Positions 11,613-64,000 of a DNA stretch of 64,000 bases are shown piece after piece. The notes beneath the pieces are model-generated. The model was not told the DNA's origin. It made no database searches and was given only the letters and a program-made list of their open reading frames with translations. The stretch spans positions 19,778,001 through 19,842,000 of the forward strand of contig CM060733.1 in the NCBI GenBank assembly GCA_030704615.1, read 5' to 3'. Position numbers and translations under genes: made by a program. Source of the DNA: Takakia lepidozioides (Eukaryota; Plantae; Bryophyta). Numbering within the stretch: the stretch's first letter is position 1; each line of letters opens with the position of its first letter.

Positions 11613-11616
11613 GGTC

Positions 11617-14439: not shown

Positions 14440-15290
14440 CAGTCTCGCCTCCTATATATACTGGCTACTAGGAGGTTCCCTAAGAGGCTTCCCCAAATGA
14501 TGTTTCTTGATGGAGAAGTTCCAGTAACTTGGGAAACTGCTCAGGAAGCTTCCTTTGGAGGAAACTTCTCCATCAAGATACCTCCTTTGAGTCAGGATTC
14601 TGCATGTGAGCCAAGTCATCTAGGGTCGTATAAGGAACATGGGTTTTGGTCTCTCCCCGAGTAAGTACATTAGCGTTGTTGTTTTCTTTCCCCTTCTTGT
14701 AAACAGTATCATATTCAAAACCCTGTAGAAGCAAAGACCATCTAGCAAGTCTGCCAGACAATTCACGAGGAGTTTTAAGGGCTTTGAGAGGTAGGTGATC
14801 TGTCTCCACGGTGAAATAACAACCATGCAGGTACTGCCTGAAGTGTTTCACACCAAAAATGACAGCCAACCCCTCCTTGTCAGTAATACTATAATTTTTT
14901 TTCATGTTTATCAAACCGCCTAGATGCGTAAGCAACAACATGTTTTTTACCATCTCGCACTTGGCTAAGAATTGCAGAAACAGCCATGTCACTGGCATCT
15001 GTTTGCAAAAGAAAAAAGATGGAGAAGTCTGGAAAAACCAGCACTGGAGCAGTTGTGAGGGCTATCTTCAGCTTCAAAAGCCTTGGTCTCAGGTATGCCC
15101 CAATGAAATCGAACATCTTTGCATAAAAGCCTGAATAATGGACCAGCCATGTTAGCAAAATGGAGGATAAAACGTCTATAATAGGAAGCAAGGCCAAGGA
15201 AGGCACGGACACAATGCTTGTCACGGGGAAGAGGGAAGTCCCATACTGCCTGGATTTTGCTAATATCAGGTTTGATGCCTTCCCAACAAA
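14440..15290 (-). mobile_element. LTR fragment fused to an RT/RNase H remnant of a second Ty3/gypsy family
   Basis: LTR piece at 14440-14588. Coding remnant: LKIALTTAPVLVFPDFS..FLLQTDASD, YASR, YSITDKEGLAVIFGVKHFRQYL, ETDHLPL, GRLARWSLLLQ. Confidence 0.85.
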
Positions 15291-15299
15291 GGATGTGAC

Positions 15300-18108
15300 C
15301 GAGAAACTAAAATTTGGTAAACTTCCGGTAACTGGTAACTAATGATAACTTATGATAAATCGTGGTAGATCATCGTAGCTTTTGGTAACATGATAACTTA
15401 GTAACTTCTGGTATTTACTCCTGGTAAGTTTCTCTGGGCTATGTCTGTGACATCACCCCCTCCTCTAGCGCCGAGTTCCTCGAGGAGCGATAAAATCTTG
15501 GACTTGCTTAGAGCCGGAGAACCTCCCTCCTTAGTATGTATCATATACATTAAATGTGGAGTCTTCACCTTGAAGCTAACTTGGCTGACATCATCGTTGT
15601 GACGTCTTATTGACGTGTAGCTCGGAGCTTAGCTGGATATCGTTGATGAAACTCTTGGACTTTGTCAGATGCATTGGCAAGGTTGGATGAAGGTTTCCAC
15701 GTTTGTTCGCTGATGTCGTAGCCTTTCCAATGTACGAAATACTCAAGACGTTTATACTTGATGCGAGAGTCTAGGACTTCGTCGACTTTATACTCGATTT
15801 CCTGATTGACTTCGATTGGTGGAGGTGGTACGGAGACTCTCCCTGGAATATTCGATGGATGATATAACTTTAATAATGAAACATAAAAGATTGGATGGAT
15901 GCGCATACTTCGTGGGAGTTCAAGCCGAAAACTGACTGGATTTATTTGTCGAATAATTTTGACTGGTCCCAGGCGTTGATAATCTAACTTCCTTGATGGA
16001 CGCGAGGTTTGTATGTCCCATCAAAGAAGCCACATACGATCTCCGACCTTGAACAAGGGTTGGAGTTGACAATGTTGATCTGCATACTCCTTGTATTGTT
16101 TTTGAGCTTCTGCAAGGTGGAATGTAAGCTCCTTGTAAATCGTAGCAAGATGAGTAGCAAGGTTTTCTACAGCAGGGCTTCCAACAGTCTTCATGTGGAA
16201 AGGGTTTGCTCGAGGATGATGACCATAATTGGAAAAAAATTGAGTTTACTTGGTCGAAGAATGTACAGTGTTGTTGTAGGCAAACTCAGCCAATGACAGA
16301 AGGTCCGTCCAATTATCTTGGTGATAATTTATTGTACAACGAAGATACTGTTCCAAAATCTGGTTTACAAGTTCGGTTTGACGATCAGTCTGTGGATGAT
16401 TAGTTGTAGAGAGGTTGATCTTAGTATCCAATATGTGAAATAATCCCCTCTAGAAATTTCATATGAACTGTGGTCCTCGATCAGATACGATGTCTTTCGG
16501 GAGTCCATGAATGCGGTAGATATTATTGAGGAAGAATCTTGCAGTTTCCTCACCGGTATCCGTCTTATTACATGGAATGAAATGTGTCATCTTCATAAAA
16601 CGATCTACAATAACAAGGATTGAATCGGTGGTCTTAGAAATTGGAAGGTTCGTAATAAAGTCCATAGACACGGACGACCATGGACCCTTGGGAATAGGTA
16701 ATGGTTGCAGAAGGCCGTAAGGTCGATGTCGTGGTCCCTTCGCTTTAGCACACGAGTCGTAAGATTTTATAAATTCTTTCACGAGTTTCCACATCTGCGG
16801 CCACCAATAGTCGCTGGATATTAATTCTATTGTTTTGTTGAAGCCGAAATGTCCTGCAGCCGGAAGATCATGACATGTTTGAAAAATTCGAAGTCGTGTA
16901 GACCCTGGAGATACATAGAGAAGTCCCTTGAAATAAAGTAAGTCATTTTTGAATTCGAAGTCGTTTGTAACATGTGGGTTGTCTCGAGGTCGATTTAGTT
17001 GACTTCGAAATGTCGTAGCAAATTGGTCGCTCTTCAGTGCTTCCTAAATCTCCATTATGATCTTTGTATCGTCATAGGAGGACATTGATAACATATTCAA
17101 TTGAAGATTTGCTGGTTTCAAAATGATGGATTTCTGCTGGTCGAAAGCTGCCTCCCCTTTTTTCGGCGCAAGATACGATCGTCGAGAAAGAGCATCGGAT
17201 TTTCCCTTGAAGATGTCCGGGGTAATAGGTAATAACAAAATTAAACCTTGCTAGTGACATACCTCATCTGACTTGACGTCGATTTAAAACACGAGCACTC
17301 ATAAAATATTCGAGGTTTTTGTGATCGGTGTAGATAGTGACATAATGTTTAGCTCCCTCCAGTAGATGACGCCACTCCTAAAAAGCATTGATGATCGCTA
17401 GAAGTTATTTGTCATGGATTTTATAATTGATCTCTGCAGCAGAAAATTTGCGAGAACGAAAACCAACAGAGTGAAGTCAGCCATCCGTACCGTATTGAGA
17501 GAATATAGCGCCAAGTGCAAAGTCCGATGCATCTGCTTCCAAGAAGAATGGTTTAGATGGGTCTGCATGTACCAGTATTGGAGGGGTTGTAAATGTCTGC
17601 TTCAGCCTTTCAAATGTCTGGTCAGCCTTCTCATCCCATACAAATTTGTCATTCCCTATGAATTGTGTCAATGATGCAACAATTTTGGAGTAGTTCTTGA
17701 TGAAGATTCTATAGAAATTTGCAAATCCCATAAAACATTGTTCATCTCGGACCGAAGTTAGTTTAATCCACTCGATGATGGTTTGTATTTTCTTCTGATC
17801 CATAAATACGCATTTGTCGGAAATAATGAAGCCCAGAAATTCGACCTCAGATTGATGGAAAAGATACTTTTCCAACTTGACATATAGTCATATTTTTCTT
17901 AATTTATCAATGACAAGGTGTACATAGCGGCCATGTTCTTCTTCATTCTGTGAAAATATCAAAATGTCGTCCAAATAGATGACTACAAAGTCATCTAAAA
18001 ATTCTCGAAAGATGTCATTCATCATATGTTGGAAAATTGCTGGAGCATTTGTACGACCGAAAGGCATAACACTATATTCAAAATGTTCATACCTTGTTCG
18101 AAAAGCTG
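15300..18108 (-). mobile_element. Tcn1-like chromovirus 3' half: RT, RNase H, integrase, chromodomain, PPT and partial 3' LTR, degenerate
   Basis: [11 protein letters not shown] (~17960-17995), GFANFYRIFI, EADASDFALGA, CDSC-like Zn finger, MDFITNLP, VDRF, chromodomain. PPT agaggagggggtga directly precedes the LTR start at 15452. Confidence 0.93.
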
Positions 18109-23562: not shown

Positions 23563-24648
23563 GATATCAGCAGTCTGCTTTATGCCTCCTGCCTTCTTCT
23601 TCCTTTCATGCTTGTGAGGTAAGTGTTTGCGATGCAAGTTTGTATTCAGACCTGAGCGGCAAATTGGTGTTAGGGCAGTCGAGGAGCGGAGAGAAGGGGC
23701 TGTCATCCCTCGCGCTCAGGCGTGTTGGAAATCCAAATACGGTTGTGATATTGGGAGCTGTGGCAACAGAGATTGTTTGAGTGTTGTGTATGACCCTGTG
23801 TATAGTGGCTGTGCATTTGAGAAATGCAGAGATAGTTTTCGTGCAGGTGGGTTGAGGAAGAAGAAGAGTGAAGCCCTGACCTTTCGTTCGCTGAGGGAAC
23901 ACCCGCTAGGGGGATGTAGCGTTATAACGGATTCTCCTGTGTTGGATTCACATGGAGAGATTCCCACTCCTTCGTTCCAAGATGTATCCGTGCGAAGAAG
24001 CGACAGTTGCGCTGGATTTGGTGACGAGCTCGGCGGAGGAGAAGAGCTGGGCATCGTAACACAACAACTATTGCTGCACAACAGTAGTGCTTTGTCTCCA
24101 GAGGCGGAGAGATATCAGGCAGGGGACCCGTTAGAGGAGAAAAAATGGTCACTTTTACCACTAGAAGCAGATAGATTCCAAACAGTAGAAGCCCAAGAAA
24201 GGTCGATGATGGTGACGAACCAGGGGTTCAATTATACGCAGAGAGCACAAGGGATTCGAGCAGCTTGATAGATACAGGCATTGCGAATGAAAGTGACAAT
24301 CTCAACTTCAGCCCTGGCATGTTTCATCGCACTACATAGGAGAGTAAGTTCGTAAGAACTGCCTGGGAAAAACTGGTTCGATGGTCAAGGTCATGGCAAT
24401 TGCTCAATGCTCGCAAACAATCCGATGCCCTGGTGAAGACCAAGAAAGTGGTTGTCCTGGGGGGAGGCTCGTTTGGTACGGCAATGGCCGTCCTATTGGC
24501 TAGAAACAAAGCTGAAATGAACTTCACCCTTCTTCTCAGGGACGATGTTGTGTGCCAGTCTATCAACAACCACCATACAAATATGAGTTATTTTCCAATG
24601 CATCTGTTTCCTGTCAATGTGGGGGCAACTACCAACGCCCAAGGAGCT
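23563..24648 (+). pseudogene. Inverted partial duplicate of the 5' half of the neighbouring G3P dehydrogenase gene
   Basis: Near-identical to the reverse complement of 26968-28100. Frameshifts near 23715 and 24205, TAG at ~24337, truncated after VNVGATTNAQ. Confidence 0.93.
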
Positions 24649-25289
24649 GTGTTGGTCACTTTGGCCTGTCCAAAGCCTTTCCAAGCTCCTCCTTGGTATG
24701 TGTGAACACACTGAACCCTTTTTGAAGAGTGTTTCTCTCACCAATCCATTCCATGAAATTGCAAGCAGCCTCAGTTCCTTGTCCTCCCTTAGCCAACATA
24801 GAGAGTTTCAAGACAGCATAGCAGCAACAAAGACAACTTGTTCTGGGAGTAACTGCGAGATTCAAGCACCATGTACAGAAGTCTCCGCCCAACAACCCTG
24901 ACAGGCTGAGGGCAGTTATTAGAAATTATTGTATAATCTTACAACGAGGTTAACTCAATTTGACCAATGAGCGTGATTGACAGTTCCAGCTTGATGTTAA
25001 CAAGCTAATCTGAACCAAACAGAGGGAGTCAAGCCCAACAAGAAGAAGATCAGAGACAAGACAAATAAGCATCTGCTCCCGTTATCCAATTGGTCTGCAA
25101 TACACTTCCGTTTTAAATCACTTGAATCTTCCAGGATCAAGGGACTATCACTGTGGGAAGGGAAGAGGGCAAAACACACAAAAGAAAAGTATAACAAAAG
25201 GCAGATTCTTTGCACAGCATATTCAGAAAGTTGTTCAAACTGGCAAGCGCAAAGCACTGAGTCTCACTAATTTTTTCACTGCAGAGGGA

Positions 25290-25620
25290 TAAACTCTGAG
25301 GTCAAGAAAACCATGCTTTGCCGCGTTATTAGACCTGCCTTGGAGTACGCATCTGCAATATGGGATGATAACTCCAACCAGGCTAAGTCTCTAGAATCCA
25401 TTCAAGTGGGGGTGCTTAAGGAGTGCATGTGAGCATGCTCCAAAACAGCCACTGTGGCTGTTGGGGGTGAATTTGGCATCCCTTCCTAAGCTCCCGAGGA
25501 GATGAATTCAAGGTCGGATGGCGGGGTCAGCTGCAACATATGCCCAACATCAGATATCCTAAGTTAATCGACTCTATGTCTTGGAAACAGGATCGCCCCT
25601 GTGAAACAGGCTAAGTCCTG
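25290..25620 (+). mobile_element. LINE reverse-transcriptase C-terminal remnant
   Basis: IRPALEYASAIWD...LESIQ...A.VAV.GEFG, interrupted by stops. Confidence 0.65.
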
Positions 25621-26172
25621 GCAGAAGAGCAAACCACGTCTTATGAGTAGATTCTTTGCACAGCATACCTGCCAGATTGAAGATCTGTAAATTGATGGCC
25701 TCCCTTCACCGAGGAGATAGATGGAGACGCAAATGCATACAGAGACTAAGGGTGGCAATCTGAACACATCTTCCAGGGTGTGCCAGTGGCCCTTCCACTG
25801 TCAGTTCCCGGTTCATATGTTTCCCCAAAGTAAATGGCACTTAACACTCTTATGTCTCTTGCCAACTCAAGTCTCTGGAAGAAAAGAAAATTTGAACCCT
25901 CTCCATTGCCCTACTTCACCAGGAGAGTGAACAACCGTTCAATTTGATGTTCTTGGCATATAGAATCCAAGGACATTAGGTAAGACAAAAGTCCTGTGAT
26001 CAGATGACAACTGCTACAACAGGTGGGGGAAGGCTGATAGTTGGCAGCCAATGTGTTTTACAATGACAACGGTACAAAAATACAAACAACTTTCTTAACC
26101 AGAAAAATTGATCTCAAGAAACCATTTAAAAAATTGTTCTGACTCCTGTGCGTCAAAATCATATAATTGCAT

Positions 26173-28077
26173 TCACACCTCCTCCACCTGTGGAAGGCTC
26201 ATCAAGGCCAGTACAGCTTTTTTGGGAGTCAGTTCATTGTCAAGAATGCGAGCTACAGCCGTAAGCACCGGCATTTGAACTCGATACTTCCGAGCCAACG
26301 CGATGACCGCACCTGCTGTGGCAACACCCCCCGCTACTTGACTCATGGAGGACAAAATGTCTTCAAGTTTTTCACCTGACCCCAGTCTGACCCCCACAGA
26401 TCTATTCCTTGACAGTGTCACAAAACAAGTAAGCATAATGTCCCCAGATCCAGAAAGGCCTGCCAGGGTTGTAGATTTTGCACCCATCTTTTCTGCCAGC
26501 CATCTGATTTCTGAGCAGCCCTGAGCAACAAGAGCCGCCATGCAATTGTTCCCAAGCTTCATGCCCTCGACAATTCCTGCTGCAATGGCTAGCACATTCT
26601 TGAGTGCTCCTGCCATCTCAACACCCACGACATCATTGGATGTGTTAACCCGAAGATAGCGAGAAGCTAGAAGCTGCTGAGCAGCCCTTGCTAGTTCCTT
26701 GTCTCGAGAGGCAGCCACCATGGCCGTGGGAAGCTCATCCATGAGCTCGATTGCAAAGGAGGGGCCAGAGATTACAGCAACTGGCTGTCGCGGGTTCCCA
26801 AGTGCTCTAGGAATAACTTGCGACATCATTTCCAGGGTGGATAGCTCCAAGCCCTTGCTTACAGACAGGAAAGGCAAGCTTGCTGGAACATGCTCTGCTA
26901 TGCTCCTTAGAAAGGCCGTACTCGACTGAACAGGGACTGCGTGAATGCAGAACTGGGCATCTTGCAGAGCTTCTTGGGCGTTGGTAGTTGCCCCCACATT
27001 GACAGGCAACAGATGTTTTGGGAAATACCTCATATTTGTATGGTGGTTGTTGATAGACTGGCACACAATATCGTCCCTGAGAAGAAGGGTGACGTTCATT
27101 TCAGCTTTGTTTCTAGCCAATAGGACGGCCATTGCCGTACCAAACGAGCCTCCCCCCAGGACAACCACTTTCTTGGTCTTCACCAGGGCATTGGATTGTT
27201 TGCGAGCATTGAGCAATTGCCATGACCTTGACCATCGAACCAGTTTTTCCCAGGCAGTTCTTACGATCTTGCTCTCCTCTGTAGTGCGATGAAACATGCC
27301 AGGGCTGAATTTGAGATTGCCACTTTCATTCGCAATGCCTGTATCTATCAAGCTGCTCGAATCCCTTGTGCTCTCTGCGTATAATTGAACCCCTGGTTCG
27401 TCACAATCATCCGACCTTTCTTGGGCTTCTACTGTTTCGAATCTATCTGCTTCTAGTGGTGAACGTGACAATTTTTTCTCCTCTAACGGGTCCCCTGCCT
27501 GATATCTCTCCGCCTCTGGAGACAAAGCACTACTATTGTGCAGCAATAGTTGTTGTGTTACGATGCCCAACTCTTCTCCTCCGCCGAGCTCGTCACCGAA
27601 TCCAGAGCAACTATCGCTTCTTCGCACGGATACATCTTGGAACAAAGGTCGCACGGACACATCTTGGAACAAAGGAGTGGGAATCTCTCCATGTGAATCC
27701 AACACAGGAGAATCCGTTATAACGCTACATCCCCCTAGCGGGTGTTCCCTCAACGAACGAAAGGTCAGGGCTTCACTCTTCTTCTTCCTCAACCCACCTG
27801 CACGAAAACTATCTCTGCATTTCTCAAATGCACAGCCACTATACACAGGGTCATACACAACACTCAAACAATCTCTGTTGCCACAGCTCCCAATATCACA
27901 ACCGTATTTGGATTTCCAACAACCCTGAGCGCGAGCCCATGACAGCCCCTTCTCTCCGCTCCTCGACTGCCCTAACACCAATTTGCCGCTCAGGTTTGAA
28001 TACAAACATGCATCCCAAACACTTACCTCATAAGCATGAAAGGAAGAAGAAGGCAGCAGGCACAAATGGGTTGCCAT
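26173..28077 (-). CDS. NAD-dependent glycerol-3-phosphate dehydrogenase, plastid SFD1/GLY1 type, intronless, long N-terminal extension
   Basis: KVVVLGGGSFGTAMA, SKGLE, SGPSFA, DVVGVEMAGALKNVLAIAAG, GLSGSGDIMLTC, SRNRSVG. First ATG (MATHLCL) at 28077; the frame is open to 28317. Confidence 0.95.
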   Translation of the reverse strand: MATHLCLLPSSSFHAYEVSVWDACLYSNLSGKLVLGQSRSGEKGLSWARAQGCWKSKYGCDIGSCGNRDCLSVVYDPVYSGCAFEKCRDSFRAGGLRKKKSEALTFRSLREHPLGGCSVITDSPVLDSHGEIPTPLFQDVSVRPLFQDVSVRRSDSCSGFGDELGGGEELGIVTQQLLLHNSSALSPEAERYQAGDPLEEKKLSRSPLEADRFETVEAQERSDDCDEPGVQLYAESTRDSSSLIDTGIANESGNLKFSPGMFHRTTEESKIVRTAWEKLVRWSRSWQLLNARKQSNALVKTKKVVVLGGGSFGTAMAVLLARNKAEMNVTLLLRDDIVCQSINNHHTNMRYFPKHLLPVNVGATTNAQEALQDAQFCIHAVPVQSSTAFLRSIAEHVPASLPFLSVSKGLELSTLEMMSQVIPRALGNPRQPVAVISGPSFAIELMDELPTAMVAASRDKELARAAQQLLASRYLRVNTSNDVVGVEMAGALKNVLAIAAGIVEGMKLGNNCMAALVAQGCSEIRWLAEKMGAKSTTLAGLSGSGDIMLTCFVTLSRNRSVGVRLGSGEKLEDILSSMSQVAGGVATAGAVIALARKYRVQMPVLTAVARILDNELTPKKAVLALMSLPQVEEV

Positions 28078-28802
28078 TGACAAAGCAGACTGCTGATATC
28101 TCCAACGGCATAGCTGCCTTCCCCTCCTCCGGCCACACCGACAAGAACGCTGCTCTTGTACTCTACTTACTGAACACGTCCCTTTCTTCTTCTCCAACGT
28201 CGCCGTGGTCCCCAAATTTGTAATCCGCAAATCCGATTGTCCCGCATTTGTCCCTCTCTCTATAACTATTTGCCGGCCACGAGACTGGGACACAAGACTG
28301 TAATTCTTCACTGGCACTTTGTTTCTCAGGGCTTATCCAATGGGCCACCCCTCTGAAGATGGGGTCGCCCCGGGTACGCGCCTTAGGGAAGATGACTCGG
28401 ATAGTCTAGAAAAAAAAAATATATATATATTATTACACAGTTGGAAAGATAATGGGTTGGCGGACCCACCCGTCGTATTGTCGGGCGGATCGTTGCGGAG
28501 GGCGTAAGAGACGAGGATGAAGATTCAGTGTATGATGAATCCAGGGGAGAATCCAGAGCGCTTTCTGGCCAGCTTGAATTGGAAAAGTGAAGATTAGGCG
28601 TGTTTTGTATGCAAATCTCAGCTTTCGGGGAGATAATTGTAGACTGAGGAGGAAGATTCCACAGCAGGTAATACTCTGCTGTCGTATGTTCATTCGAGTG
28701 GATCCAGAAGATTTGTGCTAGTGATATTTTCGCATTTGCGACCGCTGTATCTGATGCCAAGGAGGCTTGTCGATTGATGATCGTTTGTCGGCATGTTCAG
28801 CT

Positions 28803-43854: not shown

Positions 43855-45002
43855 GGGTCTCTCTCCCTATCATTTTCTCCAAATGTTGCAGTGAACTCGG
43901 ACATGAATGCTTCAAAATTGTATAGTAAATGCAATTTTTTTTCTAATAGCGGTGCAAACCAAGATAGGGCAGTGTCTGATAGAATGGTGCCCACGAATCC
44001 CACTTGAATACCTTCATCGGGGTAGCGTTGTGGATGTAGTCGTAAGAACAGTTGTATTTGTTGAACAAAACCGCGAAATCTTGATCTCGTCCCATCAAAT
44101 TTCTCGGGCATGCTGATCTTTGGTTCTCTTGTAATTTGTTGAAGATGAACCGTTGTAGTAGAAACTTGTATGGTTGAAGATCCATTGTTCGACTCCTTTA
44201 ACTCTGAAATTTGTTGTTGCAAATTGTGGAGAGTGTTGTCAAGATCTTGAGACTGATCAGCTTGTAATTGGGCGGTAGAGGTACGAAGTTCTTACATCTG
44301 GAGCTGAAGACTCTACAATGTGGCGACCATTTCCGCAAATGTGCCTTCCATCTTAACTAACTAAGGAACAAACTTTAATCTCGCCAAACTGTCAAGGACG
44401 AGAACATGACTGAAATACAAACAAGAGATCAGACTAGAGGTACAAGACTAGACAAGAAGTCAAGGTCGACGTGGCCGAATGCATGATGAGTAAATATGAA
44501 TCAAAACGATCTTTATAACAATGAACAAGAGTACAAGATATTGGAACACGACTTGAATACTTGAATGCTGGAAACTGGACTGGAGTACCAGATACGGAAA
44601 CTGGGCTAGAGTACTGAGAACTGGAAATAAAAGTAACTTAAACTGGTGTTGGCGAGGCTGAAGAGTGTCCAGTCCCGCCTCCTATATATACTGGCTACTA
44701 GGAGGTTCTCTAAGAGGCTTCCCCAAATGAGGTTTCTTTATAGAGAAGTTTCCAAGGTTAAACAAATTTTTCTTAATGGAGAAGTTTCCTTAAACAAATG
44801 AGGTATCTTGATGAAGAAGTTTCCTTCAAAAGAAGCTTCCTGAGCAGTTTCCCAAGTTACTCTCGATAATTTGGTAAACTTTTGGTAACTTGATAACTAA
44901 TGGTAACTTATAGTAAATCATGGTAGATCATGGTAGATCACGGTAACTTTGTAACTTTTGGTATTTATTCCTGATAAGTTCCTCTGGGCTATGTCTGTGA
45001 CA
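43855..45002 (-). mobile_element. Tcn1-like chromovirus 5' end: LTR (44390-45002) plus truncated gag
   Basis: LTR TGTCA..TGACA. Gag starts at ATG ~44351, has early TAG/TAA stops, then EPKISMPEKFDGTRSRFRGF..YPDE..LSDTALSWF. Confidence 0.9.
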
Positions 45003-49299: not shown

Positions 49300-51320
49300 G
49301 AGTTTATACATTTCCAGCTTTGGTGATGCAACCATGCACCTCCGATGCCCTTTTCCAGGGCTGCCAAGCTTGCACACGCACTGCAAACGCACACAAACAT
49401 GATGTGGTCGAACTTCACCCCTTCCCCCATCATTTGCTTTCAGGTCTCCAAAGCCCCATACAGCGCCCTTGCTCTGCACACCCTGCAAACATCACATTCC
49501 ACAACACCACATCTCATTCAGCCATAGTGTTGCTTGGCATCCTCAATGCTACCATATTTGGCATACATGGCCACCAGAGCAGTGTTCAAGATGACATCTG
49601 GAACAATTGCAGATTTGATCATGTCACCAGGGATCTCTTTGCCCTTTTCCAGGGCTGCCAGACACACTGCAAACACACACAAACCTTATGTCGGCGGGCT
49701 TCACCCCTTCCCCCATCATTTGCTCATAGGTTGGAGCCTCCATCCTGCACCCGTGCTGTGCATACCCCGCAAGCATCGCACTCCACGACACCACATCTCG
49801 TTCAGCCATAGTGTTGAACACTCCCTTGGCATCCTCGATGCACCCACATTTGGCATACATGTCCACCAGGGCAGGGGCAGTGTTCAGAATGACATCTGGT
49901 AATCTGACAAACATTCTCCTTTTAGAATTGTTTCAGCAAATGCCCCAACCCTACTGACTTAGAGGCTGTAGTGTCCAAAGCCATGTCCGTTTCCAGAAAA
50001 TTGTCTGATGAAAATGAAGTTAGGCAGAAAACTCCCCTGGACTTGTTTCCGGTCTGTGACATGGGGGAGGACATCATGGATGACCTCAAGGGTCTACCCA
50101 CTCTCGGCACCAGACTGAAATTTAAACTAAGGGCATGAATCCTACCTTTGAATAGCAAACAGAAGCAGAGAGGAAAGGGAGTGTGCAATTGCACCCAACT
50201 CAACTTATCACACTAGTTCCTATGGTCAATTGCATCTGCTACACTCTGTAATCTTACAGGCATTCACCTTTTTGCCTCGGTTGTCCCACCAGTTACTGGG
50301 GTCAGAAAAGTATTCATCCCCACAGCTTCTTCTCATATATGTTACCTGTTTTTGGATACTTAGGGACGACTCTGATAGCAGGGGAATTCAGGGTGAAATA
50401 TGTTGAAGAAGGTACCTTCATTAGCAGTGGGCCTTGTTCTATCAATTGCGTTGCTGCCATTGCTATTTCCAGTTGACCATCTACCCACTCGTAGCCGTTG
50501 TGCTATTGAAGAAGGTGCCCCCCCTTCCCCCATCATTTGCTCATAGCTCTCCAAAGCCTCTATCCCACGTCCCTGCCGTGCATACCATGCAAGCATCGCA
50601 CCCACGACACCACATCTTGTTCAGCCATAGTGTCGAACACTCCCTTTGTATCCTAGATGCACCCACATTTTGCAAACATGTTCACCGGGGTTTTGTTCAT
50701 AATGACATCTGGTACAATAATAACTCTGAAGATGTCGCCATGCACCTCTTTCCCCTAAGCTGCCAGGGCAGTGTTTAGATTGACATTTGGCACAATTCCA
50801 GCTTTGATGATATCCCCATGCACCTCTTGCCCTTCTCCAGGCCGGCTGTCAGGCTTGCACAAGCATTCCAAATGCACACAAACATGATGTGCTTCCCGCA
50901 TCATTTGCTCATAGCTCTCCAAAGCTTCCATCCCACGTCCCTACCGTGCATACCCTGCAAGCATCGCACTCCACGACACCACATCTCGTTCAGCCATAGT
51001 GTCGAACACTCCCTTTGCATCCTAAATGCACCCACATTTTGAAACATGTTCACCAGGGTATTGTTCAGAATGACATCTGGTACAATTCCAACCCTAAAGA
51101 TGTCGCTATGGACCTCTTTCCCCTTTTCCAAAGTTGTTAGGGCAGTGTTCAGATTGACATTTGGCACAATTCCAGCTTTGATGATATCCCCATGCACCTC
51201 TTGCTCTTCTCCAGGGCTGCCAGGCTTGCACAAGAATTGCAAATGCACACAAACATGATGTGCTTCCCCCAGGCTCATAGGTCTCCAAAGCCTCCATCCC
51301 ACGTCCTTGCCGTGCATACA
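49300..51320 (-). pseudogene. Several tandem fragments of PLS-class pentatricopeptide repeat coding sequence
   Basis: Repeated DVILNTALVDMYAKCG.IEDAKGVFNTMAERDVVSWSAMLAGYAQHG and FVCVCSACASLAALEKG, with many frameshifts. Confidence 0.85.
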
Positions 51321-52287
51321 CTGGTGTCTCTCTTCCCTGATTCTCTCCCCAGCACGAGGGTTGGACAGCCCAAATCAGAAAGAGTCAGGTAAAATTACTT
51401 ATATCTGAATTCTAACTCGTCCTTTTGTTTTCCTTAGTACTAGATCTGATGTTCTTGTTTTACTCCAGGCCAAAAAATCTGCGGATTATGACCTTCCTGT
51501 CAAACGATGTCTTCATTGGAAATCTATTTCGAGGTAATCCCTTTGTTACGTGTGAATTTCATTCAGGATTTGGAGTGCTCAAGGGAAAATTTCCATTCTG
51601 TTCCCCTTCTCCGCAACCCTTTGGACGAAGACAAGGACGAAACTTCAATTACAACTTCTCGGCTTCCCGACCCTGCAGTGTTGGCGCAATGTTCTGCACC
51701 GATGAAGCGGAATAGGGCCCCGAAACCATTTCCATCTCTTCTACAAATCGGTTCCACCAGAGAGAAGTTTGTCTTCAGAGACAGAGTAGACTCGAGGAAG
51801 AAAATGAATACCTCGGACATACTGGGGTCTCGTCAAAACACGTCCGTTGGGATCCTAAGTCTGCAAGCGAGACTTTCAAATAAGGCGACATCGGTATTAT
51901 TCGATATCATTTCTCCACTTTATTCTCTTTTCTGTTCGTTTGGTTCTGCACGAATTAACTCTATTTTTTCTCAACAGGCAGGGATGCAGCACGATACCTT
52001 CATCAATTTCGCTCCGTACAAGGTACTGTCTTCAACCACCATTTGGCAGTCGACATTCATCTTCTTAGCAATATTAACCCTCCTCTTGAAACATTCGAAG
52101 CCCACAACATGTACAAGATTTTGCCTCTTTTTGCACAATCGTGTTGATCTTCCATACACTCACTCAATCATTCTGGGTCATGGGTATTTTCATGGAAAAA
52201 ACACTAATGTCAGTGTGTGTTTAAATTCCTCAGGATAACTTTGTCTCTCATCCTAAGTTACATGCAACAGCGGGGAAGAGGAAACAG

Positions 52288-54308: not shown

Positions 54309-54992
54309 TGTCGTGCGCATACATATCGCTACACAACTACATCGCTGTCCAAAAAAACCACACAACACATGTGCACACCACACACTAGTATACCACTAGT
54401 CCACCACTAGTCCAACCACTAGGCTACAACTAGTCAGTCACTAGGCTGCCACTATGCTGCCCACTATGGCAGTCACTAGTCCACACAATGATAAAGAAGA
54501 AGAATACAAGCACGAGCTCACAAAGCTGAAGCATAAACTCATGCATATATAACCTCATCACTCAAATACAAGTCAAGCCAAGTGCACCCCACGCCATGGG
54601 GAATCCACACTACGGCGCCATAGCTAGGCGCGGTGAGGCTCAACTCGAGAAAGATGAGCCTTCCGCGCTTGCCGTGAAGATAACCACTCCAGGGCCTAAA
54701 TCTGCCTTGACCCCTGGATTGACACTTGGGCCAATCCCAAATGTCAATATGTAAAAGCTAGCTATTTCCTAGCTAGTTTCACACTAGTGGTAAAATAACT
54801 TGACAGCTGTCGTGCGCATACATATCGCTACACAACTACATCGCTGTCCAAAACCACACAACACATGTGCACACCACACACTAGTATACCACTAGTCCAC
54901 CACTAGTCCCACTAGTCCAACCACTAGGCTACAACTAGTCAGTCACTAGGCTGCCACTATGCTGCCCACTATGGCAGTCACTAGTCCACACA
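54309..54992 (-). repeat. 3' LTR with ~180-bp direct repeat at both ends (A-B-A)
   Basis: 54309-54488 is nearly identical to 54808-54993. TG start follows the PPT and the end is CA. TATA-like tatatatg at ~54545. Confidence 0.75.
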
Positions 54993-55197
54993 ATCGCCCC
55001 CCTAGCTGGTGCTTAGGTCCCTCTAAGTCCAGGTAGCCACAAGATGTGATAGTGACCATAGCCTCACTAAGTCCTCCACCACTATCCCTACTACACTCAA
55101 ACTCGATAGATCAAGAGGCCGGGTGCAAGAGTTGCCCCATCGTTAGTCGCCGTCTTGCAACCTGTGAACTTGAGCTTGGGATCTCATGTATTGACTC

Positions 55198-56637
55198 CTA
55201 TGAGCTTGGCCTCCCATGTCTTGTTAGCTGCCTCCAGTCATGTCCACTGCCACTATCCCAAGCAGTGTGGACAAACCAATCTCCGTCAGGAACCTTCTCA
55301 AGAGGTGGTGTCAAGCATCCCATATGCCAACCCCTTGAGCATCGATCACACACCAGCATGGTGGCTGCCCCTTTGGCAGACCCACAGAGCATGCACCTCA
55401 AACCTGCAGGTACCACTGCCAAGTTTGGGTCAACTCTGCCATCGACATTGGGAAGGTGACATGGCGCACAATTACGCACATGGTCCTTCCAAGTCATGCC
55501 ATCCCGACCCTCCAAGATCAGGACCCCTGAGGGCAACACCTCTCGAACCCTCAGAATAACACGCCCTGCAGTAACATCCAGAGTCGTAGGAGCAGTCTGC
55601 TGCAAATAAACATAGTCACCAGGGCTAAACCTCCGAACCCCAGGACGATATCCTCCACCACGTATAGTGGCATACCTCAACGTATCACGGTGCTGTGCAA
55701 TGGCAAGGTTCTCAAAAGCCATGGGCATGACTTTCTTGAACAACTCTGCACGCTGATCACATGCACGTACCCACACGTCCGGATCGTCAAGGTTAAGGAC
55801 TTGAGCAGTGTCCCTACGAATGGCTGCAGGCAAATCCGGCTCTCGGCCAAAGAGAAGGAAATATGGTGAGAAGGAGGCAAGTGATGCTTGTTTGCTGAAC
55901 CTGTAGCCCATGGCTAACCAAGGAACCTGAAGATCCCAATCTCCTAGGTGTCCCTTCTGCAAGCCATACTTGCGCAAACCCCTCTTCACCGTCTGAACAA
56001 CTCTCTCTGCTAAGCCATCGGCCTCAGGATGATCCCGAGAAGTGGTGCGGTGGTCTATCAAGGCTTTATCACACAAAGCCTGAAACTCCCCCAAGAACTC
56101 TCTCCCTTGGTCCGTGAGTACCTCAGCTGGAGCACCAAATCGGCTAAGCACACGATCCAAGAATGCATACGCAGCCCCCTCACTAGCCTTGTCAGGCAAT
56201 GGAACCAACTCAATCCACTTGGAGAAGTGCTCCACCATCACCAACACATATCTGTGGTGGCGCATAGTCAGTGGCAACGGTCCTGCGAAGTCAAGACTCC
56301 ACCTGTAGCCCAATCCCATGATTGGTAAAGGATGCAACTGTGGTGTAGGGGCGTTGAATGAAGCACGCACCCTGTCACACACCATGCACCTAGCCACGAA
56401 CTGTTGCACCTCTGTATGCATACCACGCCACCAATACTGCCCCTGCAGTAAACTGTGAGTGCGTCGCACTCCAAAATGCCCCAACTCCTCATGGGCATGC
56501 CGCACTAACCGTGCACGCTGTGTGGGGTGAGGCACAATCCTCACCCGACCATCCTCCCACACTCGAAGTAGGTGTATCCCCTCCCACTTGAACCTCTTGG
56601 CTCGTTGCAGGATCCGATCCCTCTCCCTGGCAGTCAC
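55198..56637 (-). CDS. Retrotransposon integrase (HHCC + DDE) with C-terminal PHD finger
   Basis: [41 protein letters not shown], and PHD CMLC..CDRC..HMGC..DWF(CPHC). Confidence 0.95.
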
Positions 56638-56879
56638 AATGGCTGCCGTGTCTCCGTGCGGAGGTAGTCCAACACAGCCGAATCCTCATGTATATCTCTG
56701 GCACCACCTAGCTCATCACTAGCCTCAGGGTCCTCAGACACTCCGTCTACAGTCATCCCTGTTGTAGGTCCAACCTGACCTCCCGATGCCAAGATACACA
56801 AAAATGCAGATGCGTGCCATCCCGGCACCATCTCCTCGTCCGTCTCACCATGCCACCGAGCTCCAGTGTCATCCCTGCT

Positions 56880-58305
56880 GCATGGATTGCGACTCAATCC
56901 ATCCGCATCCCGATTGACCAAACCCGGTCGATGCACAACCTGAAAGTCATACTCCTGGAGTATAAGTGCCCACCGTGCAAGCTTCCCCGTAAGCTTCTGA
57001 CTCCATCAACCACTTGAGTGGCTGGTGATCCGTGACAAGGGTGAAAAGATTGCCGTATAGATAGCACCTGAAGTGTGCCACGGCCCACACTGCAGCTAAG
57101 CACTCTCCCTCATATGAGCTGTACTTAGCCTCTGCAGCGTTGTTCGAGCGGCTAGCGTAAGCCACTACGAACTCTCTTCCCTCATCATCCACCTGTGTGA
57201 GCACCGCTCCAAGCCCCAGCATGCTCCAATCCGTATGCAGCTGAAAGGGACGCCCCCTGATAGGTCGTCTCAGATAGGCGCCGAGGTCAACCTCGCCTTG
57301 AGCTCTTGAAAAGCTCGTTCCTGCTCATCTTCCCACTGCCACTCCTGGTCCACCTTGGTCAGCTTGGTTAGAGCCTTTGCAATGGTACTAAATCCCTTGA
57401 CAAACCGTCTATAATAGTTTGCCAACTCGGCTCACATCCGTGGGGCGTGGAATTTGTGCAATGGCCTCTACCTTAGTCTGCTGTACCCCCAATCCTCCAG
57501 GATATATCATGTGACCCAGATACTCAATCTGGTTGTGGAAAAACTTGCACTTCCCCGGATGCAACTTCAATCCGTGCGCTCTCAAGCGCTCCAATACCAC
57601 CTGAAGGTGTCTCTCATGCTCCTCCATCGTAACACTAAAGATGATGATGTCATCTATGTAGCACCGAGCAAAGTCCACCCCTGCTAGAATCCTATCCATG
57701 ACTCTCTGAAACTCTGCAGGAGCATTCTTAAGCCCAAATGGTAAGAACCGCCACTGATATAGGCAATCCTTGCCGTGCTCATTGATCCCCCATCGTCTTC
57801 TGCTTGTCCGCCTCCTTGATTGGCAACTGGTGATATCCGGATCGTAAATCCAAAGTGCTAAAGCCTTAGCATGCCCGATGGCATCAAAGATCTCCTCTGG
57901 TGTTGGCATGGCATACTTATCGGACTTGGTCTGACGATTTACAGGCCGGTAATCACCGCACATACGTCTCTCCGTCCAATTGCCATAGACATCCTTCTTG
58001 GCTGGCATCACTGTGGCTGAAGCATACTCTCCACCAGAGAGCTCCACCAAACCTGCCTCCCAGAGATCTTGAGTCCTCATCTGAATCAAAGACCTCTCCA
58101 TGTCACTGTATCTATAGGGTCTCCGAAAGATTGGCGTGTCAGTGGCCAACTCAATACGGATCTCTTGACCCTTCAGTGCTCCCAAGTCCTTCAAACTGAA
58201 GGCAAAGCAATTCCTGTAAGCCCTCAGGAACCGCCGTATACGTCGTCTCTCTCCTCCGGTGACAATGGGTCCAATGTCAGGCCCAATTGTCCTCCGTAAC
58301 TGCAA
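56880..58305 (-). CDS. Reverse transcriptase and RNase H of the Gypsy pol (single-base frameshifts)
   Basis: [68 protein letters not shown]. Confidence 0.95.
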
Positions 58306-58639
58306 CCTTAAGTCCAGTGGGCTTAGAGGTAGAGGACGCGTCCGTGGTTGCTATGTTGCAACCTCTTGAGCAGTACTCCCTGCCTGCTCAGTCAATGACA
58401 AGGCCTCATCCTGCCCCATCATCTCATCCTTGAGGACCTCCTCAACCCGAGAAGAATCCCCAACCTCATCCATCACAGCCGCCTTGGCTGCCAACTCCCT
58501 CTGAACCTCGAGCACCTCCCACGTGTGCCATGGATGCATGCACCCCGTGGTCCTCACATGCTCGCCCCCACTCACTGCCTGTACCGTCTCGGTAGGCAGA
58601 GAGACCATGAGGGAAGTGTACTCCGCACTCTGCGTTGCT

Positions 58640-59600
58640 CAGCCAGAGCCAAGCTGATAATCCAGGTCAAGCAATTGAGATCCATTGCTTGCCCCAACAC
58701 TTGACGACGTGATGCCTCAGAAAGAGACGACACCGCCGTGGTACCAGTGGTAAAACCCATTGCCCGCTCACGCTCGTCAGCATTAGGCTCCACTAACTGC
58801 TGCAACTGAGCATCCCACAGGAGGCCAGGTCCACTATCCCGGAAAGCATGCGATCCTGGGAAGCTGAGCAGTGTAGGTAATGCTGCTCGTGGTTGACCCA
58901 CCTTGTTGACCACTGCCAAAGGCGAACGGTCATCGTGTCTCACACGCTGAGACTGCCTCCCTGTGTCCAGAATGTTATCCACTGTGAGATGTGCTGGCCG
59001 CTGCACCCCATCAAATGCACGCTTGAGCAGTGCGGGTGGCATCAAGTTAGTCCACCATAGCCGTGGACGATGAGCCCGTGACCCCACTGTGCTGCATCTA
59101 GCAACACTGCTGACCCAAGCCACGACCGGACTTGATGCACACTGGCCATCACCCTGGCCCGAGAATCGCCCATCAGTGGCACATTCTCCAAGATGTATGC
59201 TGGAGAGATACAGCTTGATGAAGCTGCAAGTGGCGCAAAACCCGCACCATCTCCCAAAACAGACCCGACCTCGAGTCTCGCAATCCATTGCCATGCCCGG
59301 CTGATGAATGCCCTTGGCAGGGCCAACCTGCCACTACCAGATCAATGGAGCCAACCCGCTCCAAATCCTGCGCCCCCAGCAACGAAATGTCTGCTGGCAA
59401 GGCCTGCTGATATCCACGAATTGCAGACACCGACAACAACTCAGGGTACCGCTGCACCAACTGAGCAACATGGCGAAGTGAAACGCGTCGTGCAGTCTCA
59501 TCCCTCTCCACATACAGGTAACGCCGAACTCGTACACCTGCTGTAACACAGCAGCCAATCCGGTGCTGATCCCGCCAAACAAGTCCAGAAGACAAATGCC
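58640..59600 (-). CDS. DNMT3-like DNA (cytosine-5)-methyltransferase domain embedded in pol
   Basis: Motif I LLDLFGGISTG (~59590), II YLYVERD, III PADI, IV IDLVVAGWPCQGHS (~59320), VI YILENV (~59185), VIII AHRPRLWWTN (~59055), IX ERERAMGF, X RRQVLGQAMD (~58695). Split over four ORF segments by three single-base frameshifts. Confidence 0.92.
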
Positions 59601-59949
59601 TTCATCCGGATACTGCCACACAATAGGTGTGGTGTCCAATGGAGACAATTGAGGTGGTCCTGGTGCAATCCCCACTCCTCCTCTCCTGACGGTACAAAAG
59701 CCTCCACCCAGGCTTGTTGCACCCGTCGATCAGCATCCCGCTGCAAATCCTTGCTCGTGCCCCACAATGGAGTCTGAGCAACCATGGTAGGCAACTCCGC
59801 CATACCATACATGTCATCCTGCTCTCCCGGAGGTGGTACATCCTCTGAATGAGCATTGCCCTCAAGCAACTCTCTAGGCCAACTCACTGCCGCTGTGAAT
59901 GCTGCTAGTGTCGGCATCTTGCCTCGCTGGGCAACCGCAACTCCTCCTA

Positions 59950-62302
59950 TGAACGTCACAGGGAGCTGCACACGCCGGCCCTCCCCTGACTGCCATGCAG
60001 GCCTATAGGAAGCTGACTCCTCCCAAAAATCCAGGGTGAAGCCCATGGGTACAACACTGCCCCACCAACCAGGACATCGTATGAGACCGCGTCTGTCACA
60101 ATGGCCTTGGCTCGCATCACTGAGCCATCTGTAGGGTGATCCGGCCGTAGTCTGATAGCCAACTCACGCCGTGTCATGCCCGAGCCTGCTCCGATCCTCC
60201 CAGAGACGTCTGTATCTGGAAAGGACAAGGCTCCATATCCGCCTCCGTGAGGCCCAAGCCTGCAATAGCAGCTCTGCCCAGCATCAATGGCTGAGCTCCC
60301 GAGTCCAACAAGACCCGCAGTGGCCGGTACCTCTTGCCTGCCGGTCCACTCAAACAGAAAATGCCATCCTGGTTGTCTAACATGACAACTCCAGGTGTCA
60401 CCATGGCGCGCTCAATGGCTGGCCTAGCTGGCAGCTCCATCAACCTGGCAGCTGCAGCTTGCCATGGCGCCGCCGTGGCAGTCTTGACCCTCAAATCCGA
60501 GGATCCCTCCGGCACTACACCTCCCACTATCTCCGCAGAAGATGAAGTAACCTCCCCACTCTCACAGAGTGTAGCTGCCAGCCTGAACACCTCAGCTGGT
60601 CTTACCCCCGGCGTCGCAATCATGGTAGCCGAGAACAATGGAGCCTGGCACACAGATGTGGCCGCTCCTAGCAGCACACTAGCTGCCGTAGCCTTGGCAA
60701 CACTAGGTAGTGGTGCTACCCGTGTAGCTCTCCCCAATGGCATAGTAACCTCCGCCTCGGTAACAGTCGGGCGAGAACTAGGTGCCATGGATGGCGTCGA
60801 CACTGTCTCCGCCAATGTGAATGACTGAGGAAGCCTAGCTGACGGCTTGCCTCCCCACGCTGTGGATCCAACTCCACCTCTGCACCTCGTGGCTCAGGAA
60901 CTCGTGCTGCTCCTCGAGTCACGGCTGCAGCAGACTCCACCTGCACTAGTGGTAGTGCTGCTCCACACATGAATCCCATGCCTCCCATATCTCCTCCCTC
61001 AGGAGCAGGAGGTGGACCATCCGGCCTTAGAGCCGGTACCACCTGAGCTGTAGCCATGGCAGCGAGCCTCTGCTCTAGCTGCTGAAGCCGGTTGGCCATG
61101 CCTTGGTCAACACCCTGACCTCCGCGTCCTTGGCCATGTTGAGCTTGCCCTTGGCCTCGTGGCTGGCCACCTCGTCCTCTCTGGGCTGCTCCACCTCGCC
61201 CCCGGCCACCATTGTTCCCTTGGAACTGGCCTGGGCGCAACTCAGGATGCAAACCATAACACTGGGCCTCTCCATGCCCGTGCTTGCCACAATGCCCACT
61301 GCAACTGTGCAGGCTGTGCATGTGCCGGCCCTTTGCCTCCCTCTGGGCAATCCTTCTTGACATGGGGTCCTCCACATGTCCAGCACACCACATCCGCCCG
61401 TTGTTGGCCAGCAAATGAAGGGAGAGACCCCTGCATCTGAGGTCCTCTCTGCCCTTCCCTGAGCTTCACCTGAGCCCCCTTGTTGCCTTGAGCACGTTGA
61501 GGTAGTGGTTGGCTAGGAGCACCACTACCCCGTGGTGTCTCCTTAGCAAATCCCACCATGACCACTCGTTCCTCCACCATGTTGAGCTCTATCCGCTCTG
61601 CCAGCAAAAACACATTTGCTAAGGTGGGTTGGGCCGCTTGTAGGAGAGTTGCATCCCGCACCCTTCTCCTCAGCTCCTTGTCCAATATCCCATACCAGAA
61701 TTGGACTGCCTGAGCTTCCGTAACCCCTTGGGTTACATTTATCAAGCGCCTCATGCGAGTGAAAGCCTCCCTCAAGCTCTCGGTCGGCTTCCGTTGGAAC
61801 TCTTGCAAGCTCCGCAACTTCTCTGTCCTCACCCCTTGGTAGTTCCCTCTCAACTCTTCGAAGAACTCCACAACAGGGTTGAAGGCAGGCACGGGTGCTA
61901 GTGCTGGTGCGGTAGTGGCTTGGGTGGACGTCGTAGCTACTGTACCACCAGTCCCACTAGCTGCTACTTGCTGAAGCTGCCGGTGCAGCGGCAGGTGTAG
62001 CCACTGCCCTCGTGGCTCTAGTGCCCCTAGTGATGGAGACATAGTCGGGTGACCAGTACATCCTCCACTCCTCGATCTCAACCTCATGCCCCCGCCTGAA
62101 CTCATGGTAATCATCCATAGGCGGCCCCTCAAGGTGCTGAAACAGCCCCTTCCATGCCATGAAAGGCGTAAATAGTTGGATTGCGCATTTGCTGCAAATC
62201 ACACCAACTATCAAACTCTTGGATAAAATCATCCAACTCGATGGTGCCCACCGCCCCAGAGTACCTTCGTGGCCCCTTGGTAGCTCCATACATCTCCTCC
62301 AT
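59950..62302 (-). CDS. Gag with two zinc knuckles, and retropepsin protease (frameshifted)
   Basis: FQRKPTESLREAFTRM, CWTCGGPHVKKDC, C..CGKHGHGEAQC, RG-rich linker, protease RVLLDSGAQ (~60300), YDVLVG. Confidence 0.85.
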
Positions 62303-62859
62303 TGTGTCCCACAACAATGGCAAAGAAAAACAACTTGCACCGCCGGTATGAGTCCTCCTGATTCACAATCCGAATCAGAAACCTTCCGTAGAAGACACAG
62401 GAGGTGAAGGTGGCCTAAACCGCACACCTCGTCTCGTGTACCCACTAGTATCGCTAGTGCTCGAACCGGCACTGTCCCCAGCAACTAGTGGCACCTCCGT
62501 GTTGACACTCAACCGGTCATGAACATGTCCCTAACCCCCTCTCCACAAGGTAACCGGGTAGAGAACCTGTTGCGGCTTATGGTTTGGAATACTAAGTTCC
62601 TAACATAGCCTACACCTGTACCTGCATCCACCGCAAGCACTCCTATGGTTGGCTGGTCATCACCTCAACCTCACCACAGGAGAAACAATGATGGTCTGGC
62701 TGGTCATCACCCCAGCCTCACCATCGACAGCATGCTCTAGGACTGGCCGGTGATCAAATCCGGACCAATCACCTATAAAAACAAGCGGCATGTTGCCTTC
62801 AGCCCTCCACGAGCTTCAAAATTCGGCCTTCCAGACCACATGCCAGTCCTTAGGCAGTC

Positions 62860-63350
62860 CACCAGTGCCTCCACGAGTCAGCACAGGCCGTCCACAGGTC
62901 AACACGGGCCACCACAGACCAGCACAGGCCCACAGCTCAGTCACAGCCGTCACAGCCCACAGGCCACACACACACACAGTGTTTTTCACAGCCTGTCACA
63001 GCCCCTCACAGCCCGTCACAGGCCTCAGGCACGGCCTGCACAGCCGTCACAGCCCCAAAGGCCTTTCACAGGGGCAGCACACACAGGTTCACAGCCCGTC
63101 ACAGCCCCACAACAGTCACAGCCACAGCACAACACAACATTTGTCACAGCACACAGACACGGCCTGTTTTCACACACAACAGTTTCACAGCCCCTCCATC
63201 ACAGCCCCAAAGGCCACACAGCCGTCACAGTCACAGCCCGTCACAGCCCCACAGGCCTCAGGCACGGCCTCACAGCCCTCACAGCCCGTTGTCACAGCAC
63301 ACAGGGCCTTCACAGCCCTCACAGCCATCACAGCCCCCCCACACAGCCCC
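62860..63350. repeat. Low-complexity (c/t)cacag(cc/gc) tandem array upstream of gag
   Basis: Dozens of cacag-based 7-12 bp units. Confidence 0.9.
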
Positions 63351-64000
63351 CCATCCATGGCCGCTCTGGCAGTTTAGCCATTTCTCCAAGGGGTTTAGCC
63401 ACGCCAAGCTAGGGTTTGTGTCTCTTGGACTCTAGGCTTCTTTCCACCGAGCTATGGCGGCTGTGAGGAAATCAGCAAGGTATTCTTGCTCTTTCGGCTC
63501 CCACACACCACCATAGTAGCCCTAAGCCATGAGGTGGTTGCCACAAACCAAGCCTTCTTTCTCACTTAGCCTCCCCAAACACGCCACTAAACTCAATGGC
63601 AAACAACCAAGCCCTGCTGGTTCCCAGCCCTTGTGAGCACTCATTCAAGCACTCTCCTTGGCCATAGCATCTGTCTTAGAGCCTATTCCAGCCCCCTACA
63701 CCTGCTGCTTCAAGAGTTGCGCTCCCTTCAAGCTTGAAGTTGAAACCCCAACTCACATAGGCCCTACAAGTGCTTTTCTTTCACTCCAAGTGGAAACCAG
63801 CCCTAGACCTTCCGTTCTAGCTCTCTAAAGCTTGAAAACAAGAGCCTCAATGGGCTGAAGGCATGCTCCACACATGCCCCACTCTCACCATAAGAGAATC
63901 AGCTCCTTTGCTTCATTTCTTGCACCCACAAACCTGAAAATACAAGCTTCAGCAGGCTGAAAGCATGCCACATGCCCTACAGGGAAACCAGCCCTTCCTT

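Follow-up and report, generated by a model that had tools for sequence, protein, structure and literature searches.

Results

A moss window contains a Gypsy element with its own cytosine methyltransferase

The 64,000-nucleotide stretch of DNA analysed here (the window) carries a copy of a Ty3/gypsy retrotransposon family, known from mosses and liverworts, that encodes its own DNMT3-like C5 cytosine methyltransferase (DNMT). Judged by its domain order and repeats, the element appears to be a land-plant branch of a known Gypsy-DNMT3 kind. What appears to be new is a conserved, leaky-type UAG between the DNMT and the reverse transcriptase (RT) in the bryophyte branch, together with putative self-priming and integration ends that would lie inside the long terminal repeat (LTR).

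On the minus strand, from ~62300 to 54309, the element runs in the order gag, protease, DNMT, UAG, RT, RNase H, integrase and PHD finger. A 5′ leader with simple tandem repeats (62303–64000) extends to the window end, beyond which lie repeat A1 and the primer-binding site. It is followed by a frame-shifted gag with two zinc-knuckle-like motifs (61100–62302; PF03732, E=0.002; 71–80% identity to the Marchantia Mp4g09160 gag pieces), an aspartic protease (59948–60395; PF13650, E=0.03; 62% identity to a Marchantia relative) and the DNMT domain (58629–59640), which was assigned from motifs, PF00145, profiles and relatives. ORF2 is composed of a frame-shifted RT and RNase H (56946–58350; PF00078, E=2e-25; PF17917, E=3e-30), an integrase with an H2C2 zinc finger and DDE core in a single unbroken frame (55500–56685; PF17921, E=3e-16; PF00665, E=1e-13) and, at its end, a PHD finger (55270–55395; PF00628, E=4e-8). 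All of these features are on the minus strand. In unbroken relatives, gag, protease and DNMT share one frame and form single gag-PR-DNMT proteins (P0004, P0011, P0052 and P0056). The RT-RH-IN order and the DDE integrase, as detected by Pfam profiles, are those of Ty3/gypsy elements, while the chromodomain that follows the integrase in chromoviruses (Tcn1, Chlamyvir) is absent by Pfam from the window element, which has the PHD finger instead. The original prediction, made from this DNA alone, had described an intronless Dnmt3-like domain between protease and RT, with gag-PR upstream and RT-RH-INT downstream. That anatomy stands, but the PHD finger and the 3′ B-A-B repeats described below had been overlooked.

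The host is moss-like according to a neighbouring glycerol-3-phosphate dehydrogenase gene (26173–28332, minus strand), used here only for host placement, which is 90% identical to its counterparts in Physcomitrium and Ceratodon, with 85% for Calypogeia and 77% for Klebsormidium. With this gene closest to mosses, the predicted residence of a DNMT inside a land-plant Gypsy element is borne out. The 5′ part of the same gene is found in a long inverted duplication (23579–28066; arms of ~1.1 kb in pieces, 95–98% alike), which may give rise to hairpin RNA or may be a fold-back of the assembly. Further decayed Gypsy-like elements, with RNase H and integrase remnants, are located at 8500–17600 and 44400–45000; the same intervals hold a second repeat family with TG...CA repeats and a 7-kb direct repeat pair. 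Gene pieces in short frames at 49300–51400 (minus strand) are presumably pentatricopeptide-repeat-like.

The methyltransferase domain is DNMT3-like and under purifying selection

Three-frame translation of ~59640–58630 revealed motifs I, IV, VI, VIII, IX and X in canonical order. By hand count, motif I is at ~59585–59571, the catalytic cysteine of motif IV at ~59319–59317, and motifs VI, VIII, IX and X are at ~59188–59180, ~59069–59061, ~58775–58752 and ~58697–58680, respectively. The predicted C5-methyltransferase motifs and their order were thus recovered for these motifs, catalytic cysteine included, and the proposed Pfam check returned a match of PF00145 to 59173–59601 (E=9e-11, 42.2 bits, cut-off 22). 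The domain is on the strand of the element, as had been predicted, but it is not one continuous frame; three breaks, close to 59538, 59206 and 59087, distribute it among four frames. Four HSPs span residues 1–333 of a Marchantia relative with a combined E=3e-134, and the four window pieces, joined with X at the breaks, share 75% identity with Marchantia and Calypogeia proteins, 46% with the Klebsormidium protein and 43% with Scenedesmus proteins.

Family profiles found their best solved-structure match in DNMT3A (91.7 bits, compared to 54.8 for DRM and 32.5 for M.HhaI), and an AlphaFold model of the natural relative P0006 (74% identical; mean pLDDT 91.5) had DNMT3A/3B as its top Foldseek folds (E=9e-19). 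The closest solved relatives by profile and fold are DNMT3A/B/C, in agreement with the DNMT3-like identity originally proposed. Of 34 PR-DNMT-RT-type proteins, 29 retain the catalytic cysteine and the other five have a gap there; among 94 RH-DNMT-IN-type proteins, it is retained in 91. The proline preceding this cysteine is replaced by glutamate in 61 of the 94 RH-DNMT-IN-type proteins, with the cysteine unchanged.

By the NG86 method on query-anchored codons, with an identity filter that biases pN down, pS between subfamilies is saturated at 0.73–0.86 versus a pN of 0.15–0.30, RT and integrase being alike in this respect, and within-subfamily omega is 0.25–0.71. The substitution pattern indicates that the DNMT is under purifying selection, like RT and integrase; neutral dN/dS, named beforehand as an outcome that would refute the prediction, was not found. 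CpG depletion as a sign of self-methylation was not seen, as the CpG observed/expected ratio is 0.52 in the element versus 0.41–0.43 in host sequence of the window.

DNMT and integrase trees were built with FastTree (no bootstrap; P0070, L052 and L075 left out of the DNMT tree) from element sequences, with five phage enzymes added to the DNMT tree, host DNMT3 and reference Gypsy lineages not being among them. The window element groups with bryophyte copies in both trees, and RT-RH-DNMT-IN-PHD-type proteins form one DNMT clade (support 100). Klebsormidium is located in an open basal fork of the DNMT tree. A Coleochaete scutata transcript, P0355, encodes an integrase 77% identical to that of the window, versus 57% for Klebsormidium; combined with the 75% moss/liverwort DNMT identity, such similarity may reflect horizontal transfer, slow evolution or contamination. 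The domain might have been derived from a phage or bacterial DNMT3-like enzyme and not from a host DNMT3, as phage methyltransferases score up to 82.5 bits against the family profile, close to the 91.7 bits of human DNMT3A, and phage clusters appeared at 0.96 in the feature search. We regard such an origin as quite improbable: the highest profile score still belongs to DNMT3A, all element DNMTs separate from the five phage enzymes (support 100), which form a distant group in this tree without host plant DNMT3, and the Klebsormidium domain is placed inside the Dnmt3 clade in the portion of PMC5890265 available.

A conserved leaky-type stop codon separates the DNMT from RT

ORF1 ends in an in-frame UAG (58353–58351) between DNMT and RT. 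The UAG is followed by a CAR-YYA hexamer, and its sequence context makes this (58345–58353, minus strand) a likely readthrough site. Such a context is found at 4 of the 1528 TAG triplets of the window. By pattern, 46 of the 60 close loci have a stop at the corresponding junction, 42 of these with CAR next (the remaining loci being four pattern matches off target and ten without a stop), and so does L052. L047 consists of one 7.2-kb frame whose sole UAG is at the DNMT/RT junction, in perfect CAR-YYA context. Marchantia, Calypogeia and Sphagnum proteins terminate ~100 residues past motif X, at the stop position, and many pol proteins start just upstream of RT. No stop was found at this junction in the more distant subfamily L058–L080, in P0100 and P0512 or in the Klebsormidium gene model; DNMT and RT are in the same ORF in P0100, P0512 and apparently L058–L080, but not in the window element.

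The DNMT had been predicted to reside in the same pol chain as RT, which does not hold for the window subfamily: as the stop separates the two, the enzyme ends the presumably abundant Gag-side frame and not the pol chain, and, as DNMT and RT are in the same frame, a single chain would be made only through readthrough. CAR-YYA is the readthrough signal of TMV, for which the accessible text of PMC2754532 gives 6–10% in stable plants and 32% in a transient assay; the TMV stop has the same context but belongs to a viral replicase, while readthrough in the window element is predicted. By analogy, gag-PR-DNMT would be the abundant product and RT-RH-IN-PHD the readthrough product. In the commonest, peat-moss-like subfamily, the stop is followed by CAA-CCC, one base off consensus, and then by an in-frame ATG, which makes reinitiation possible there.

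Repeat anatomy suggests possible self-priming and possible integration from circular cDNA

The window element ends in PPT-B1-NN-A2-B2. A polypurine tract (PPT; 54995–55007), conserved in relatives, abuts repeat B1 (54808–54994), and a 2-nt spacer (54806–54807, no strand assigned) forms the centre of a palindromic CA-NN-TG junction in which the element end (B1) is joined to the element start (A2). Repeat A2 (54490–54805), with a TG start, is delimited by contigs of other runs that diverge at 54805 into unlike flanks, and repeat B2 (54309–54489), with a CA end, is the 3′ end of the element; B1 and B2 were defined by repeat comparison. The tract and the three repeats are on the minus strand. Five complete relatives are A1-coding-B1-NN-A2-B2 with a TG start and CA end, four with exact 4-bp duplications. 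The full A-coding-B-A-B layout was read in L043, L051, L061, L065 and L072, of which the window copy shows B-A-B. Nine distinct copies end at B1; where both ends are available (five copies), the duplication is exact in two and 3-of-4 in two. The four exact duplications of the complete relatives do not fit the NCGN insertion motif of the REXdb clade Phygy.

No tRNA-type primer site was found after A1 at the A1 ends of the relatives. The 14 nt following A pair with a site 163–165 nt into A, ~25–30 nt past a TATA-like box. Pairing is 14/14 in L051, L061, L065 and L067, 13/14 in L001 and 12 in L029 (0 of 200 shuffles each), and 11 in L016, L043 and L072 (shuffle fraction 0.04–0.045); in 8 of the 17 loci tested, mostly decayed copies, it was not above shuffles (fraction 0.05 or more). 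The pairing letters differ between subfamilies while the offset in A stays fixed, as seen in three subfamilies. In the window's own family, the 16 nt of a site in A (54644–54659, minus strand), the likely RNA 5′ end and self-primer, can pair with the bases downstream of A in one contig of run X1. Taken together, we infer that reverse transcription is likely self-primed from the RNA's own 5′ end, as in the Tf1 type.

In every subfamily read, the PPT is directly next to B and the primer site directly next to A. Under the usual mechanism of LTR elements, B-NN-A would therefore be present at both cDNA ends, and the integrated ends would lie inside the LTR. Joined cDNA ends cut at the first CA-NN-TG junction would give A-coding-B-NN-A-B, and a one-LTR circle A-coding-B. 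Insertions thus have their ends at a CA-NN-TG junction that lies within the LTR as defined by RT, and this suggests that circular cDNA is the integrating form. To our knowledge, DDE-integrase retroelements are not thought to integrate from circular cDNA cut inside the LTR.

A circular intermediate may not be needed if the A-coding-B-A-B layout is produced in another way, such as a DIRS/PAT-like switch of template across the B-A junction or a tandem duplication that follows insertion. The layout equals the split direct repeats of DIRS-like elements, as these are described in the part of PMC5890265 consulted, and the nine copies ending at B1 are also expected from B1-B2 recombination. Moreover, the mirror product A-B-A-coding-B that a 2-LTR-circle model predicts was seen at none of about 21 distinct 5′ ends, although collapse of adjacent A repeats could mask it. 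We nonetheless consider an origin without a circle somewhat unlikely, given the constant placement of PPT next to B and primer site next to A. In addition, the A2/B2 junction is heterogeneous among the 12 copies read, and the rearranged locus L056 keeps ~14 nt of the primer-binding site at A2/B2, followed by a precise B start, as end joining would give. Finally, the tyrosine recombinase and lack of target duplication of the DIRS type were not found; the 4-bp duplications show a DDE integrase instead.

The family occurs in mosses and liverworts and has chlorophyte relatives

Using the C-terminal half of the DNMT domain as query, 70 relatives were identified among 2054 candidates, the named ones, at 56–78% identity, being from Marchantia polymorpha, Calypogeia fissa, Riccia sorocarpa and three Sphagnum species; at E<=0.001, a 50%-identity library contained 822 representatives. 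Of 600 pattern matches in a metagenome scan, 307 were relatives, from which 80 loci were retained, a count that overstates independence since many of them represent one insertion assembled more than once. The 45 loci of at least 6 kb all have a protease before and/or pol after the DNMT domain; as the loci were found via the DNMT, members without it could not appear. An IMG/VR scan gave 14 pattern matches and 0 relatives. In Marchantia polymorpha, the family is annotated as hypothetical proteins without having been recognised, and the P0004 cluster has 18 members, several of ~1280 aa. At least four members of this cluster are on the male V chromosome (Mp_Vg names).

RT-RH-DNMT-IN-PHD order was found in 47 proteins, including those of Scenedesmus, Pleodorina and Haematococcus, and DNMT-IN pieces are present in Volvox and Cymbomonas. 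In these chlorophyte relatives, described here as new, the same DNMT is placed after RNase H and before the integrase. The clade is wider than published, as far as the literature covered extends, and includes chlorophytes. Some chlorophyte-type relatives (P0068, P0212) have, by pattern matches, an amino-methyltransferase-like tail beyond the PHD finger; such elements would combine a DNMT3 with a second, DAM-like methyltransferase and so differ from the DNMT4-related EpiLTRs discussed below. P0403, P0422 and P0469, whose integrases are within the chlorophyte-type clade, show no DNMT match between RNase H and integrase and are possible DNMT losses.

The window copy is likely young, and its breaks are likely assembly errors. 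All 14 breaks counted (in ORF2, DNMT, protease and gag start) are 1–2-nt deletions, with no substitution stop, and B1 and B2 are identical in bases over 178 matching positions, with two indels; it is on these grounds that we favour assembly errors. By comparison, the A repeats of older relatives differ by 8–9%, and three older copies have 5–7 stops in ORF2. Several deletions of the window copy are absent from contigs of other runs, while the homopolymer context of the 14 breaks is not striking (longest runs 2–5). No contig compared bridges the 3′ insertion junction, which proves nothing either way on whether the element is a one-off capture of a host DNMT retrocopy, part of a chimeric contig or algal contamination. 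That any of these explains the element is exceedingly improbable, as the same architecture is present in chromosome-scale bryophyte assemblies and contigs 90–99% alike to the element are found in runs that bear the organism label of the moss-like neighbour gene; a one-off retrocopy, which the original prediction had raised, is excluded for the family by the 70 relatives and 80 loci.

Discussion

The closest described system is KnitGypsy-Dnmt3 of Klebsormidium nitens (de Mendoza et al. 2018), a Gypsy element with a Dnmt3-like domain and DIRS-like repeats. As far as the available text of PMC5890265 shows, it equals the window element in its PR-DNMT-RT-RH-IN order (read in gene model KFL_009030040), its A-coding-B-A-B repeats and purifying selection on the DNMT. 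The position of the DNMT between protease and RT, at which the original prediction noted no domain in standard Ty3/gypsy pol, is thus not new. The same text treats KnitGypsy-Dnmt3 as an acquisition in the Klebsormidium lineage, and later papers that cite it say "streptophytes". The window element differs in its land-plant host and conserved UAG, where one ORF is stated for KnitGypsy-Dnmt3; the sections consulted do not deal with self-priming or with integration ends inside the LTR. A PHD finger is present in the window element and not in the partial Klebsormidium model, yet it is found in that model's nearest integrase neighbours, P0377 and P0385.

Other known elements share single features. 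SymbioDIRS-Dnmt3 likewise has a Dnmt3 domain in a split-repeat retroelement, but it is a dinoflagellate element of the DIRS class with a tyrosine recombinase, whereas the window element has a DDE integrase and its family 4-bp duplications (PMC5890265, in part). EpiLTRs/DAM-LTRs, too, are LTR elements that encode DNA methyltransferases of their own together with a chromatin reader; unlike in the window element, their DNMTs are DNMT4-related and appended at the pol end with DAM and a chromodomain. The accessible part of that preprint (bioRxiv 10.64898/2026.05.21.726589) names "streptophytes (Gypsy-DNMT3)" as known and contains no mention of bryophyte elements. The self-priming chromoviruses Tf1, Tj1 and Tcn1 have the kind of primer-binding site, complementary to the RNA 5′ end, that is predicted for the window family, but they possess ordinary full LTRs, a chromodomain or none, and no methyltransferase, and the stop of Tj1 is between gag and pol, not after PR-DNMT (PMC4600332, PMC6317226, both in part). 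Gypsy-7a_cRei of Chlamydomonas is another green-lineage Gypsy with a PHD finger, for which the figure legend consulted in PMC9940879 lists no methyltransferase. Within the openly accessible literature, in part excerpted and exclusive of subscription papers, theses and Repbase notes, we found no report of a land-plant Gypsy-DNMT3, of the leaky stop or of internal ends.

The explanation that we favour for the whole, and hold to be reasonably probable, is a bryophyte Gypsy family in which the DNMT at the end of ORF1 is likely made in near-Gag amounts and is predicted to methylate the element's own cDNA. Ribosomes would pass the UAG at a low rate, as at TMV-type CAR-YYA signals, to produce RT and integrase, and the protease would free the DNMT inside the particle. 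Reverse transcription, self-primed by the 5′ end of the RNA, would yield cDNA with B-NN-A at both ends; this cDNA may be circularised, and integrase would then cut the circle at its internal CA-NN-TG junction. Once packaged, the DNMT could methylate the double-stranded cDNA, most likely at CG by analogy with DNMT3A and SymbioDIRS-Dnmt3, and new copies would then arrive already marked like host chromatin, with the PHD finger likely guiding the choice of insertion site. Protease release, packaging and cDNA methylation are inferred.

The same element and ORFs are also compatible with a DNMT that acts during or after integration on host chromatin or the element promoter, for self-restraint or insertion-site marking, or that acts on RNA. 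These options are raised in the available part of PMC5890265, and no result here indicates the substrate. Moreover, the PHD finger and the DNMT could act jointly on chromatin, and the DNMT is next to the integrase in the chlorophyte-type relatives. In the window subfamily, however, the DNMT ends the Gag-side frame, away from the integrase, which fits a particle-borne enzyme, and the predicted DNMT3-type fold points to DNA as substrate. We thus view a role outside the particle as unlikely and prefer methylation of the cDNA. In yeast, no methylation was obtained with the Klebsormidium domain in isolation, an outcome that the authors regard as inconclusive; SymbioDIRS-Dnmt3 was shown to methylate CG de novo there (both from the consulted part of PMC5890265).

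A broader and more tentative reading, to which we give somewhat less than even weight, joins these features: a Gypsy clade spanning the green lineage (chlorophytes, charophytes, liverworts and mosses), with its own DNMT3-type writer and PHD reader, would prime itself and integrate from circular cDNA cut at attachment sites buried in the LTR, and the leaky stop of its bryophyte members would load the DNMT into particles at Gag amounts. In annotated bryophyte genomes, DNMT counts may, in addition, be too high owing to such element domains.

It has been an open question since 2018 why a transposon should encode an enzyme with which hosts silence it, in part because its known hosts are ill suited to genetics and no signal was obtained in yeast with the domain from Klebsormidium. 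Marchantia polymorpha is a tractable model with methylation mutants and, were the joint reading true, its unbroken copies would make transposon self-methylation testable in a model land plant. The leaky stop predicts the dosage of the enzyme, and the repeat anatomy predicts a circular integration intermediate. What the finding offers is a land-plant model host together with three testable features.
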